The notes: a model not told the origin generated them from the letters alone. 5,257 nucleotides of DNA from Escherichia coli (GCF_003334385.1 NZ_QOWN01000082.1), one strand, 5' to 3'. Counted from the stretch's first letter, positions 1 through 5,257 are shown. Made by a program: numbers and translations.

Positions 1-2
1 TG

Positions 3-347
3 ATCCCGTTACCTTCCGGGACCAAAATTTGGCTGGTTGCCGGTATCACCGATATGAGAAATGGCTTCAACGGCCTGGCTGCGAAAGTACAGACGGCGCT
101 GAAAGACGATCCCATGTCCGGCCATGTTTTCATTTTCCGGGGCCGCAGCGGCAGTCAGGTTAAACTGCTGTGGTCCACCGGTGACGGACTGTGCCTCCTG
201 ACCAAACGGCTGGAGCGTGGGCGCTTCACCTGGCCGTCAGCCCGTGATGGCAAAGTGTTCCTTACACAGGCGCAGCTGGCGATGCTGCTGGAAGGTATCG
301 ACTGGCGACAGCCCAAGCGGCTGCTGACCTCCCTGACCATGCTGTAA
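3..347 (+). CDS. tnpB: IS66-family accessory protein TnpB (orfB), 5'-partial (start lies upstream of window)
   Basis: The reading frame is open from the first base of the window ([24 protein letters not shown]...) and stops at 345-347. The translation has the recalled IS66 TnpB hallmarks (WLVAGxTDMR, FIFRGRxG, LLWxxxDGLCLxxKRLExGxFx[16 protein letters not shown]). The ORF-track ATG at 54 is internal. Confidence 0.9.
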
Positions 348-396
348 ATCTCTTTATCCTGGTTGTCACAGAATAAGCCCGGTAAAATACGGGCTT

Positions 397-1782
397 ATGA
401 ACGACATCTCTTCTGACGACATCTTCCTGCTGAAACAGCGCCTGGCCGAACAGGAAGCGCTGATCCACGCCCTGCAGGAAAAGCTGAGCAACCGGGAGCG
501 CGAAATAGACCATCTGCAGGCGCAGCTGGATAAACTCCGCCGGATGAACTTCGGCAGTCGTTCCGAAAAAGTCTCCCGCCGTATCGCACAAATGGAAGCC
601 GATCTGAACCGGCTTCAGAAAGAGAGCGATACGCTGACTGGTAGGGTGTATGACCCGGCAGTACAGCGTCCGTTGCGTCAGACCCGCACCCGTAAGCCGT
701 TCCCTGAATCACTACCCCGTGACGAAAAGCGACTGTTGCCTGCGGCGCCGTGCTGCCCGAACTGCGGCGGTTCACTGAGCTATCTGGGCGAGGATACCGC
801 CGAACAGCTGGAGTTGATGCGTAGCGCCTTCCGGGTTATCCGGACGGTACGGGAAAAACATGCCTGTACTCAGTGCGATGCCATCGTGCAGGCACCTGCA
901 CCTTCGCGGCCCATCGAGCGGGGTATCGCCGGACCGGGGCTGCTGGCCCGCGTGCTGACCTCGAAGTATGCAGAGCACACCCCGCTGTATTGCCAGTCAG
1001 AAATATACGGCCGGCAAGGTGTGGAGCTGAGCCGTTCACTGCTGTCGGGCTGGGTGGATGCATGCTGCCGGCTGCTGTCTCCGCTGGAAGAGGCGCTTCA
1101 TGGCTATGTCATGACTGACGGCAAACTCCATGCCGATGATACCCCGGTCCAGGTACTGCTGCCGGGTAATAAGAAGACGAAGACCGGGCGGTTGTGGGCG
1201 TATGTTCGTGATGACCGCAATGCCGGGTCAGCGTTGGCACCTGCAGTGTGGTTCGCTTACAGCCCGGACAGAAAAGGCATCCATCCGCAGACTCATCTTG
1301 CTTGCTTCAGCGGTGTGCTGCAAGCGGATGCGTACGCCGGGTTCAACGAGCTGTATCGCAATGGTGGGATAACGGAAGCTGCCTGCTGGGCTCATGCCCG
1401 CCGAAAGATCCACGATGTGCACGTCCGCATCCCGTCAGCACTGACGGAAGAAGCCCTGGAGCAGATCGGTCAGTTGTACGCCATAGAGGCGGATATAAGG
1501 GGAATGCCGGCAGAGCAGCGGCTTGCTGAACGTCAGCGAAAAACGAAACCGCTGTTGAAATCCCTGGAAAGCTGGTTGCGTGAAAAGATGAAGACCCTGT
1601 TCTTCGGCTCTGGCCATGGTGGTGAGCGGGGAGCGCTACTGTACAGCCTGATCGGGACGTGCAAACTGAATGACGTGGATCCAGAAAGCTACCTTCGCCA
1701 TGTGCTTGGCGTCATAGCAGACTGGCCGGTCAACCGGGTCAGCGAACTGCTTCCGTGGCGCATAGCACTGCCAGCTGAATAA
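397..1782 (+). CDS. tnpC: IS66-family transposase TnpC (orfC); probably a defective copy (see findings)
   Basis: 461-aa ORF starting 50 bp after tnpB. It has an N-terminal leucine-zipper-like coiled coil ([20 protein letters not shown]...), a CxxC...CxxC zinc finger (CPNCGG ... CTQC), DDE-region motifs ([15 protein letters not shown]) and a CWAH motif ([11 protein letters not shown]), all typical of IS66 transposases. Confidence 0.88.
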
Positions 1783-2020
1783 CACATCCCCGTCAATACG
1801 GCCCTCGCTGTACGCTTACTTTTGTTCGGACTGCTTATGGCCTTTTTCCACTGGTGGCGCAGGAAAGTTAACCGGCTGCCACCATGGGATGACGTGTAAA
1901 CCGTGCAGGCATGTTTTCACGTGGTGACGCTTTCATTGGGGGTCTACGCCGGAACCCCAATATTGTTCACATACATGAATTTGAAAAACTAAGCGATACT
2001 GCTGTCCGTACCTTATAAAC

Positions 2021-3394
2021 TTATTTCAACGCTTCCGGCAGCGTCACAATCCACAGTTCACTGTCAGACTCCGGTTTCTCCAGTGGCTTCACTCTGAGGG
2101 TCGTTTCAACCTGCTTGTCGTCAAGCGTCAGCTTTCCTTCCGCGTTCACCCGATAATCCTTGAATGTCTTGCCCTCGACCGGATGTTGCATCGCCACCTT
2201 CACGCCAAAGTCGTTATCGTTCGCCACCGCCAGCGTTTTGCTGTCGATCAGCGCCAACCCTTCAGCCTTCTCCTGCTGCCAGCCCAAGGAGCGCAGATCA
2301 ACAACCTGCGTTTTCTGCGCAAGGGTAATGCCGCGCTGTGACAGGGTTTTCTCATCATCAAACTCCGGATACTCACCCGGCTTGTCGAAGCCTGACAGGT
2401 CGCTCGCCTTATTGAGATCGACCTCGTAAATCAGGTTACGCATTCTGTTGTTTTTATCTCTTCCCTGTTCGATCAGCAGGATGTGCTGGTTATCGAGCGC
2501 CACGATGTCTCCGATTTTAGCGTCGCTGTTTTTGCTGTAGGCCGCGCTGTCGATAGGATAACCGTACATCGCGGTTTTTCCGCTTGCCGGATCGAAGCTC
2601 ACCAGACGCGTAAACAGCGCCTTTTTCTTGCTCTTAGCGTCGATATCCAGCGTACTTTGCACGGCGACAATAATACGCCCGTCCGGCATACGGGTGAGGC
2701 CTTCAAAGCCGCGGTTCGCCTGACGCCATTTGAGGATATTTGGCAAACCGCCCGCAATCGCTTTTTCCCCTTCCGCCGCCTGCGGACCGTGGATTGCCAG
2801 GATTTTCCCTTTACTGTCGATGTTAATCAGGAACGGGCCATACTCATCGCACAGCCAGTAACCTCCTTTACCATCCGGAGTGATCCCTTCCGTATCCAGC
2901 CCGCGATTATCCCCCTTCAGTCTATGTAACGTGTCGCTGAAGGCCACTTCATTGGTGGAGCCAATCACGTCGCTTGCCAGCGGCAGACCGTTGATCGCGC
3001 CTTTATCGTCATGCAGAGGACGGGGATCGATGGCCTCCGCTTTGCCGTTTTGTACACGAATCGTCATCAGCAGCGGCGCGAAATCTGGCGTAACGAAAAT
3101 TTTAGTTTCGTTTTTCCCCTCTTTCGGTGAATCCGCGTTCGGACCGCGATCGGTAATGGTTGCGAATGTCAGGGCATCGCCCTGTTTACCGGTGAACAGC
3201 AGGCCAGAACCTATCCCAACCGGAAGGCCGTTCGGGAATGCACTGGCAAATGCGCCGGCATAGTTCACGTGCGTGCCTTCTGGAAAACTGACGACATAGC
3301 GCTCAGCCGTAGGTTGTGCCGCCAGGGCAGAGAAAGAGAGCGTACAACCGATTAGCACGGGAATAATTTTTCTTTTCATATTGTTAGCATCCAT
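2021..3394 (-). CDS. Secreted beta-propeller protein, probably of the phytase-like esterase family (function not established)
   Basis: Uninterrupted 457-codon ORF with E. coli-like composition. The N-terminus is a typical Sec signal peptide (MKRKIIPVLIGCTLSFSALA/AQP). The mature part is rich in Gly/Asp/Asn turn motifs with recurring DxEG/FEGL-type motifs (DTEGI, GFEGL) as recalled for phytase-like beta-propeller proteins. The start could be the ATG at 3394 (MDANN) or the ATG at 3379 (MKRK), which gives the better signal peptide. Confidence 0.7.
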   Translation of the reverse strand: MDANNMKRKIIPVLIGCTLSFSALAAQPTAERYVVSFPEGTHVNYAGAFASAFPNGLPVGIGSGLLFTGKQGDALTFATITDRGPNADSPKEGKNETKIFVTPDFAPLLMTIRVQNGKAEAIDPRPLHDDKGAINGLPLASDVIGSTNEVAFSDTLHRLKGDNRGLDTEGITPDGKGGYWLCDEYGPFLINIDSKGKILAIHGPQAAEGEKAIAGGLPNILKWRQANRGFEGLTRMPDGRIIVAVQSTLDIDAKSKKKALFTRLVSFDPASGKTAMYGYPIDSAAYSKNSDAKIGDIVALDNQHILLIEQGRDKNNRMRNLIYEVDLNKASDLSGFDKPGEYPEFDDEKTLSQRGITLAQKTQVVDLRSLGWQQEKAEGLALIDSKTLAVANDNDFGVKVAMQHPVEGKTFKDYRVNAEGKLTLDDKQVETTLRVKPLEKPESDSELWIVTLPEALK

Positions 3395-3494
3395 AAAGTG
3401 AAGATCACACTACACCATAAAGAAGAAACGAGTCAGGAAAATGACATCGAATGGCAACATGCGCGGGCCTGAGGCCAAAGAAATGTAAAACACT

Positions 3495-3512
3495 GTTGTT
3501 ATTTGTAACAAC
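3495..3512. promoter_or_regulatory. Perfect 7-bp inverted repeat GTTGTTA-N4-TAACAAC, a candidate operator about 100 bp upstream of the beta-propeller gene
   Basis: gttgtta tttg taacaac read directly from the sequence; the arms are exact reverse complements. The function is a guess. Confidence 0.2.
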
Positions 3513-3642
3513 GGAAACATTTACGGAAATTATTTGTCTTTCTTCGTGATCAAAAATGCTGTGTCTTGTTGGATTGGAGTGATGAGGGCTGCGTTTAGGA
3601 AACGCCCTATATTGTACGGTTGCATTATCGCGGTAGGGGTAA

Positions 3643-4707: not shown

Positions 4708-4803
4708 TTAAGTGAGATTCTGATTTTCAAATTGTTCCGGACTGAGACCGCCACACCAACTGTACCATCGCCAGCGATTGTAATCGCACTCGATATAATT
4801 AAG
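4708..4803 (-). pseudogene. IS3 orfB remnant: only the last ~30 codons
   Basis: The minus-strand frame ending in TAA (plus strand 4708-4710) encodes [27 protein letters not shown], versus the recalled IS3 OrfB C-terminus [27 protein letters not shown]. Confidence 0.7.
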
Positions 4804-4807
4804 TAAG

Positions 4808-4979
4808 TTTGCTGATTTTGCTGTTTACTGCGACAGATGTAAAGCTGTGGTGATTCATGCAGACTAAGTTCACGGACTCCGGCAGTAACACCGATGCATT
4901 CTGCAAGCTTCAGATCTTAACTACGAAATTCATGCGAATGGTGTTTACGTTTTTTTACTGGTTGAAACTGTTTTGTCTT
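4808..4979 (-). pseudogene. IS3 orfA remnant: start codon mutated, internal stop, 3' end deleted
   Basis: The position of the IS3 orfA ATG reads AAG here (plus strand 4977-4979). The orfA-like frame (...LKLAECIGVTAGVRELSLHE..) has a TAA at minus-strand 4919..4917 and indels relative to IS3. It stops at the deletion junction near 4800-4808. Confidence 0.7.
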
Positions 4980-5005
4980 GTGAGTCACCTCTGACTGAGA
5001 GTTTA

Positions 5006-5044
5006 CTCACTTAGCCGCGTGTCCACTATTGCTGGGTAAGATCA
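5006..5044 (-). repeat. IS3-type left terminal inverted repeat (IRL)
   Basis: The plus strand ctcacttagccgcgtgtccactattgctgggtaagatca is the reverse complement of TGATCTTACCCAGCAATAGTGGACACGCGGCTAAGTGAG. Confidence 0.8.
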
Positions 5045-5115
5045 CAACACTTTAAAATGCCCTATATAGGGTTAACCAGTAATTATCTGTATGATAGCTT
5101 TGAGTTCGGGAGGAG

Positions 5116-5138
5116 GTAATGACTCCAACTTACTGATA
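5116..5138 (-). repeat. IS1 terminal inverted repeat (about 23 bp)
   Basis: ggtaatgactccaacttactgat. Confidence 0.85.
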
Positions 5139-5257
5139 GTGTTTTATGTTCAGATAATGCCCGATGACCTTGTCATGCAACTCCACCGATTTTGAGAACG
5201 ACAGTAACTTCCGTCCCAGCCTTGCCAGATGTTGTCTCAGATTCAGATTATGTCGCT
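5130..5257 (-). CDS. insB: IS1 transposase InsB, C-terminal 41 codons (5'-partial, gene start beyond window end)
   Basis: The minus-strand translation reads ...[41 protein letters not shown], with the stop complementary to 5130-5132. This matches the recalled IS1 InsB C-terminus with one S-to-L difference. Confidence 0.88.

Follow-up and report, generated by a model that had tools for sequence, protein, structure and literature searches.

A stretch of 5,257 base pairs (bp) of Escherichia coli DNA (GCF_003334385.1, NZ_QOWN01000082.1; the whole of it is called the window below) carries the pieces of several insertion sequences (ISs) side by side, together with an esterase gene and an AT-rich block that harbors a small YmgB/AriR-like gene. 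Such a locus raises the question of the replicon it belongs to, of the way in which its pieces came together and of the ability of its ISs to move DNA. As described in the following sections, the window is part of a chromosomal island and not of a plasmid, and it can be read with high confidence as a mosaic of successive IS insertions, later damaged by deletion, in the fec-proximal chromosomal island which corresponds to leuX/KpLE2 in E. coli B and K-12.

Chromosomal location of the window

Of 5426 complete E. coli genomes, 1409 contain at least 80% of the window in one contiguous piece, with identities of up to 99.9%, and all the window copies that were inspected are located in a chromosomal island between fimB-nanCMS and fecIRABCDE. 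In strain 2014C-4135, the order is fimB-nanC-nanM, a CP4-type island (with cbtA/yeeU, Ag43, a yeeP-like GTPase gene and yfjI), ISEc8 with the window, IS1F, fecIRABCDE and more IS-rich island DNA. The records labelled as plasmid that hold the whole window are two entries (NZ_CP128951.1 and AP026530.1) of one 655-kilobase (kb) replicon, which is untypable and non-mobilizable and bears the chromosomal genes gntP, nanCMS and fec. This replicon resembles a split-off or mislabelled piece of chromosome. An initial annotation of the window, made from its sequence, had considered the IS patch as characteristic of large virulence or resistance plasmids and of genomic islands. The genomic island is what the 1409 genomes and the inspected chromosomal copies reveal, whereas for the large plasmid only the 655-kb, chromosome-like replicon could be found.

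In K-12 and B, the fec genes lie within the leuX-associated KpLE2 region, and ISs are a main cause of the differences from strain to strain (PMC3032704, PMC5379014). The locus under study has this layout, with fimB-nanCM on one side and fec on the other, and in E. coli B the module continues via an integrase gene to a tRNA-Leu gene. The homologous regions of K-12 and B contain leuX, the integrase gene, fec and IS1F and are positioned between leuX and fim/nanCMS; in strain 2014C-4135 the region covered stops short of leuX. The K-12 KpLE2 shares the fecIRABCDE-ykiE-IS1F module with the window region, the IS1F end being 100% identical, and differs from it in that IS1F is then followed by yjhU-yjhFGHI-sgc in place of the present patch. 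With E. coli B, the common part further includes the AriR-like gene, IS3-like relic and spacer (99.8% identity). On the far side, strain 2014C-4135 differs from KpLE2 by its CP4-type island with Ag43 and cbtA/yeeU.

IS content and base composition

The features of the window are collected in Table 1. IS-derived DNA from five elements occupies 2687 of the 5257 bases (51%). The IS patch is real: the four elements recognized in the initial annotation (IS66, IS629, IS3 and IS1) are all present, the IS3 copy being only IS3-like (84-89% identity). They had been counted as four families and represent three, IS629 being itself a member of the IS3 family, and the 3' end of an IS903-like element of the IS5 family, at 3836-4030, was absent from the list. 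Damage is seen in four copies (ISEc8, IS629-like, IS903-like and IS3-like), in agreement with the proposal that at least three copies were truncated or internally deleted. IS1 is not among them: it is cut by the window edge only and has its full 768 bp in the genome. Both ends that were expected outside the window could be mapped there, the left repeat of the IS66-family element (ISEc8) 470 bp upstream and the complete IS1F downstream.

A strong compositional step was observed in the window, both in the sliding profile of guanine-plus-cytosine content (GC) and in the counts per segment. The GC of the AT-rich block departs from that of the remainder of the window with z = 9.9, and none of the 660-bp windows fell below 42% GC across 1000 shuffles. 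A maximum-likelihood three-segment fit placed the GC steps at about 3361 and about 4017. The drop begins at the terminal repeat of the IS903-like stub, and the true left edge of the block is at or just before 4030. The AT-rich range given earlier, 3950-4680, is thus close to the measured one, whereas the DNA on its left had been described as E. coli-like, which the ISEc8 part is not, because its GC is above the approximately 51% typical of E. coli. The GC levels of 58, 51, 32 and 43-44%, the relatives of the esterase and the plasmid matches of the DUF6404 fragment point to segments of separate origin. With a permissive cutoff (E up to 1), Rfam yielded zero RNA families over the entire window, and consensus scans for promoter-like and terminator-like motifs gave counts equal to those of shuffled controls.

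Table 1. Features of the 5,257-bp window, with the GC of the main segments.
Feature	Position	Strand	GC	Evidence or remark
ISEc8 (IS66 family)	1-1820	+	58.4%	right 1820 bp only; begins upstream of the window
ISEc8 tnpB	1-347	+		RefSeq; NCBIfam IS66_TnpB, E = 8.7e-31
ISEc8 tnpC, 153-bp in-frame deletion	397-1782	+		two-piece BLAST against intact ISEc8 and junction inspection
DUF6404 gene, 3' fragment	1821-1937	+		86-95% identical to DUF6404 genes; cut by ISEc8
Esterase module	1938-3660		51.5%
Phytase-like esterase family protein, 452 amino acids (aa)	2021-3379	-		Pfam PF13449, E = 7.5e-43; open reading frame (ORF) to 3394
IS629/IS1203-like 3' terminal 175 bp (IS3 family)	3661-3835	+		end of orfB and right terminal repeat
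IS903-like 3' end (IS5 family), 195 bp	3836-4030	+		frameshifted; ~75% identity to IS903B over 3855-4007
AT-rich block	4031-4690		32.3%	single-copy, almost always chromosomal
YmgB/AriR-family small regulator gene	4112-4405	-		Pfam PF10798, E = 7e-6; RefSeq annotation
Unannotated 48-codon ORF (MTEYNTASSYIRRNVLTKKTISLLPVLTIISIMYFIYIAKYACYTCHN)	4408-4554	-		hydrophobic stretch; no NCBIfam match
IS3-like relic	4691-5044	-	42.7% (4691-5041)	BLAST against K-12 IS3A
70-bp spacer, IS3-like relic to IS1F	5045-5114			RefSeq 20-aa ORF or gene fragment
IS1F, terminal 143 bp	5115-5257	-	44.1%	100% identical to K-12 IS1F

Damage in the ISEc8 copy

The ISEc8 part shows 99.2-99.7% nucleotide identity to the copies that RefSeq names ISEc8. 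Like them, the element has the gene order tnpA-tnpB-tnpC (RefSeq annotation) and a GTAAGCG-type terminal repeat on either side. The right one (...GTACGCTTAC) has its last base at 1820 and the left one (GTAAGCGTAC) was located upstream of position 1 (locus L002, 11531), this position being the second base of the tnpB start codon. Unlike the named element, the copy measures 2290 bp, that is 2443 bp minus the 153 bp deleted in frame from tnpC, and it is devoid of the 8-bp target-site duplication, its flanks being AAATAGTG and TTTTGTTC. As these flanks differ, the copy does not occupy the site of a simple insertion but the junction of an old rearrangement.

The tnpC deletion junction was found at 1596-1600, inside the 5-bp repeat CCTGT, and the product has 461 aa versus 523 aa in intact ISEc8. 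The deleted stretch comprises 51 residues (SRHSELAKAF...GRKNFL). The Pfam DDE_Tnp_IS66 model is matched over positions 1-222 of 284 in the present copy and over positions 2-283 in the intact protein, the missing positions 223-284 being the last fifth of the Pfam catalytic domain. The block DG..E.DNN.AE.ALR, situated within the deleted residues, is kept by the four intact IS66-family TnpC proteins that were compared (59-86% mutual identity) and presumably carries the third catalytic acidic residue of IS66-family transposases. Because the end of the catalytic domain and the invariant DNN.AE.ALR block are deleted, the ISEc8 transposase should be dead. The element would be non-autonomous at best and, with both terminal repeats kept, it could in principle be moved in trans. 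In the open literature on the IS66 catalytic motif, no usable paper was found.

One-ended and degenerate relics

The IS629-like stub resembles IS629/IS1203 over the last 175 bp, with the end of orfB (translation ending in ...IPPAEAEKAYYASIGNDDLAA*) and the right repeat, at 94-96% identity: 96.0% to an IS629-annotated copy and 95.0% (IS629) and 94.3% (IS1203) to others, over these 175 bp only. In the isoform rule of ISfinder, about 95% or more nucleotide identity to the named element is needed. Unlike IS629/IS1203, the stub is a 3' end only; the 5' part, which is most of the element, the left end and the transposase are missing. In the adjoining IS903-like stub, the C-terminal coding region of the transposase is recognizable by the peptide LRDYDGQVAEAM, common with the IS903 transposase, and the terminal repeat (...GATTCAACAAAGCC, ending at 4030) by the motif TTCAACAAAGCC at its end. 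RefSeq annotates an IS5/IS1182 pseudogene at this place. The stub differs from IS903/IS903B by an identity of about 75%, by its frameshift and by the retention of the 3' 195 bp only, which supports an assignment at family level (IS903 group, IS5 family) as a probable unnamed relative. As the right end of the IS629-like element abuts the interior of the IS903-like one, the former would have inserted into the latter. Having a single end each, the two stubs cannot transpose.

The IS3-like relic aligns with K-12 IS3A at 88.7% identity over 4807-5041 and at 83.9% over 4691-4802. What is kept amounts to about 235 bp at the left end plus about 112 bp close to the right end, the ~895 bp between them (IS3 positions ~236-1130) having been deleted. 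In the left terminal repeat, which is intact, the 45 terminal bases compared match K-12 IS3A exactly, whereas the outermost ~13 bp of the right repeat are degenerate and do not align with it. The best matches named IS3 reach about 89% in the left-end part and 84-86% in the right-end part, the hits above 99% being this same locus, and no closer full-length parent was found in the E. coli genome collection. On these alignments, the relic is classed as an IS3-family relative and not as IS3 itself, and it almost certainly cannot transpose. A mobilisable miniature element was considered for this relic and rejected, given the degenerate outer right repeat and the matches above 95%, which are almost all single copies at this locus and do not form a dispersed family. 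The only use left to the three short relics is as short stretches of homology for recombination.

The state of IS1F is different. The full element of 768 bp extends to the window-equivalent position 5880 (99.5% match in locus L002) and is followed by ykiE and fecIRABCDE; its terminal repeat GGTAATGACTCC is present. It is full-length as in K-12 and at the same position beside ykiE-fecI, the two loci differing only by the DNA on the non-fec side and not by the element itself. In neither lineage is IS1F bordered by a 9-bp target-site duplication, the flanks being TCGGGAGGA / GAAATCCCC here and AACATGGTC / GAAATCCCC in K-12.

IS-linked rearrangements

ISEc8 and IS1F, both lacking a target-site duplication, mark old rearrangement junctions. 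Where the region is arranged differently, in K-12, in an E. coli B derivative and in plasmids, it is IS1 that stands at the junctions, and this element visibly keeps reshuffling the region. In NEBExpress_Iq, the E. coli B derivative, an IS1 copy beside nhaR/espX1 (locus L012, 7618-8385) abuts window position 4045, and the order is IS1, window 4045-5114, IS1F, fec, the rest of KpLE2, the integrase gene, tRNA-Leu and idnK...valS. From the one junction seen, this arrangement indicates a probable large chromosomal inversion between two IS1 copies, with one breakpoint in the AT-rich block. A transposition of fec was also considered for this strain and was rejected in favor of the inversion, as fec runs through leuX into idnK-valS.

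The esterase module was also detected on plasmids, at least 80% of the query 1821-3660 being present in 64 plasmid records. In the one copy examined (locus L003), the order is IS1, a 290-bp IS911 stub, window 843-4031 and IS1, the second IS1 following directly after 4031; the two IS1 copies (4917-5684 and 9190-9957) have the same orientation. The plasmid and chromosomal versions should go back to one ancestor, since the 153-bp tnpC deletion and both stubs (IS629-like and IS903-like) are common to them. No 9-bp duplication surrounds the IS1-module-IS1 structure (AATCTCCTG versus GAAAAAATA, in this one plasmid), and its status as a proven composite transposon was rejected on this ground. The IS911 left-end stub (L003, 5712-6000; 98% identical to K-12 IS911B), between IS1 and ISEc8 position 843, is one more dead IS in the plasmid lineage.

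A clean insertion was observed in strain NCTC9082, in which a full ISEc43 (IS66 family; locus L007, 6560-9093) stands upstream of the esterase gene and is bordered by an 8-bp duplication, AAAAATGC, of window positions 3552-3559. It shows a recent transposition into the patch and a continuing activity of IS66-family elements. Of the suggestion that the IS copies of the window could mediate rearrangement or mobilisation of the genes between them, rearrangement is supported for IS1, present at the alternative junctions, and historically for ISEc8. Mobilisation is weakened by the state of the relics, which are one-ended or degenerate, and of the present ISEc8 transposase, which lacks its most conserved motif; the earlier label of an IS graveyard is apt in this sense. 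More than 1400 genomes have this arrangement in almost the same form, and the patch should therefore be regarded as a mostly stable fossil and not as an active hotspot.

Proposed history and alternative explanations

In the history that we propose, the patch would join DNA of at least four origins inside the chromosomal island: the CP4-type island on the left (outside the window), the DUF6404 scrap, an imported esterase gene, the AriR-like AT-rich block and the IS1F-fec module. An IS903-like element would have been present beside the AT-rich block and would have received the IS629-like element by insertion. A deletion would then have removed the left part of both elements and joined the rest to the upstream region of the esterase gene, after which the IS3-like element would have inserted and lost its interior. 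ISEc8 would have cut the DUF6404 gene, and slippage or recombination between CCTGT repeats would later have cost it 153 bp of tnpC; as no duplication is present, one of its flanks would have been exchanged. Finally, IS1F would have joined the patch to fec, again without duplication.

Several points weigh against this reconstruction. The IS names are based on RefSeq product names and on annotated K-12 copies, and the IS3-like and IS903-like relics appear too diverged (84-89% and about 75% identity) to be given the name of a known IS. The probable position of the catalytic glutamate in the deleted TnpC block comes from the general features of IS66-family transposases and from conservation in five sequences. 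The order of events is inferred from nesting and is undatable. The near-identity across 1409 genomes is compatible both with vertical inheritance and with repeated transfer of the island.

Three other explanations were weighed against the damaged island mosaic. The window could originate from a large virulence or resistance plasmid, the IS patch being a region of plasmid accretion. The 64 plasmid records of the esterase module, the match of the 1821-1937 scrap to plasmid backbone genes and the common occurrence of ISEc8, IS629 and IS1 on plasmids are compatible with such an origin, which is nevertheless very improbable: the whole window is carried by a single "plasmid", the 655-kb replicon full of chromosomal genes described above, all inspected copies among the 1409 genomes are chromosomal, and the plasmid copies span 843-4031 only. 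Furthermore, the AT-rich block, detected in 1701 of the 5426 genomes, occupies 1706 chromosomal places versus 42 plasmid places. An assembly artefact, with collapsed or chimeric repeats, has a practically negligible probability. IS-rich regions are prone to short-read misassembly; this explanation is refuted by many independent complete genomes, which yield the 5257-bp arrangement in one unbroken alignment (up to 99.9% identity).

Composite transposons formed by IS1 are familiar, and the patch, or an IS1-bounded part of it, could also be an active one that moves, as a unit, either the esterase gene or fec along with the AriR-like gene. The direct IS1 copies around window 843-4031 in plasmids and the IS1 and IS1F copies around 4045-5114 in the B derivative have the expected geometry. 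We consider this mobility improbable in view of the missing 9-bp duplication in the examined plasmid (n = 1), of the inversion, running from fec through leuX to idnK-valS, that explains the arrangement in B, and of the IS1F copies without duplication in both lineages. The damaged island mosaic is therefore retained as the preferred reading.

With respect to its importance, RefSeq already contains annotations of all the features, and publications describe the island as well as the variability that ISs cause in it (PMC3032704, PMC5379014). No new element type or mechanism was encountered, and nothing departs from known IS biology. What is provided is an exact map of a common E. coli fec-island junction, including which of its ISs are dead, which can be used for reading structural variation and assembly breaks near fec and as a worked example of nested IS decay. 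The patch is real and ordinary, and of little importance beyond bookkeeping. A larger role, in which the intact cargo would be more than a passenger, seems unlikely. The secreted phytase-like beta-propeller, imported from Enterobacterales associated with plants or soil, could be spreading on the 64 plasmids by virtue of a selectable trait, or the AriR-like gene and the 48-codon ORF could form a regulatory module whose linkage to fec is maintained in about 31% of E. coli.

DUF6404 fragment and esterase gene

A RefSeq pseudogene is annotated at 1822-1899, within the DUF6404 fragment. Nearly all of the 2413 matched plasmid records owe their match to DUF6404 genes; these plasmids are mostly conjugative, from E. 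coli and Salmonella, and the gene is typical of IncI1/IncF-type backbones. In some plasmid records it is labelled ybaA/ydeA. The scrap, now fixed in the chromosome beside ISEc8, suggests a conjugative plasmid as a former carrier or recombination partner of part of the patch.

The esterase gene is intact and is the sole sizeable cargo gene of the window. The nearest relatives of its product outside E. coli were found in Enterobacter hormaechei (89%) and in Pluralibacter, Scandinavium and Pantoea (about 80%). The esterase is nearly invariant in E. coli, and its closest relatives are chromosomal in Enterobacter, Pantoea, Scandinavium and related genera. The AlphaFold model has an all-beta propeller fold, with a predicted local distance difference test (pLDDT) score of 84, and the protein is accordingly a predicted beta-propeller; its 18 N-terminal residues are disordered in the model and signal-peptide-like. 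A PDB search with the sequence gave zero matches and a PDB fold search with the model retrieved generic propellers only (template modelling score, TM-score, of at most 0.35), and for this reason no specific function was given to the protein. None of its close relatives is characterised or has a solved structure. In NCBIfam, neither the esterase nor the AriR-like protein nor any of the small ORFs had a match.

AT-rich block and AriR-like gene

The AriR-like protein is annotated in RefSeq with 85 aa or 97 aa depending on the record, and it matches the YmgB structure 2OXL weakly (E = 0.0016). The 48-codon ORF and the AriR-like gene are on one strand, the ORF stopping 3 bp ahead of the long-form start of the gene. 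The ORF could encode a small membrane peptide co-transcribed with this gene, or could be a chance ORF in AT-rich DNA. At the start of the block, two independent IS1 junctions are present at most 13 bp apart (window 4031-4045), which fits the preference of IS1 for AT-rich targets.

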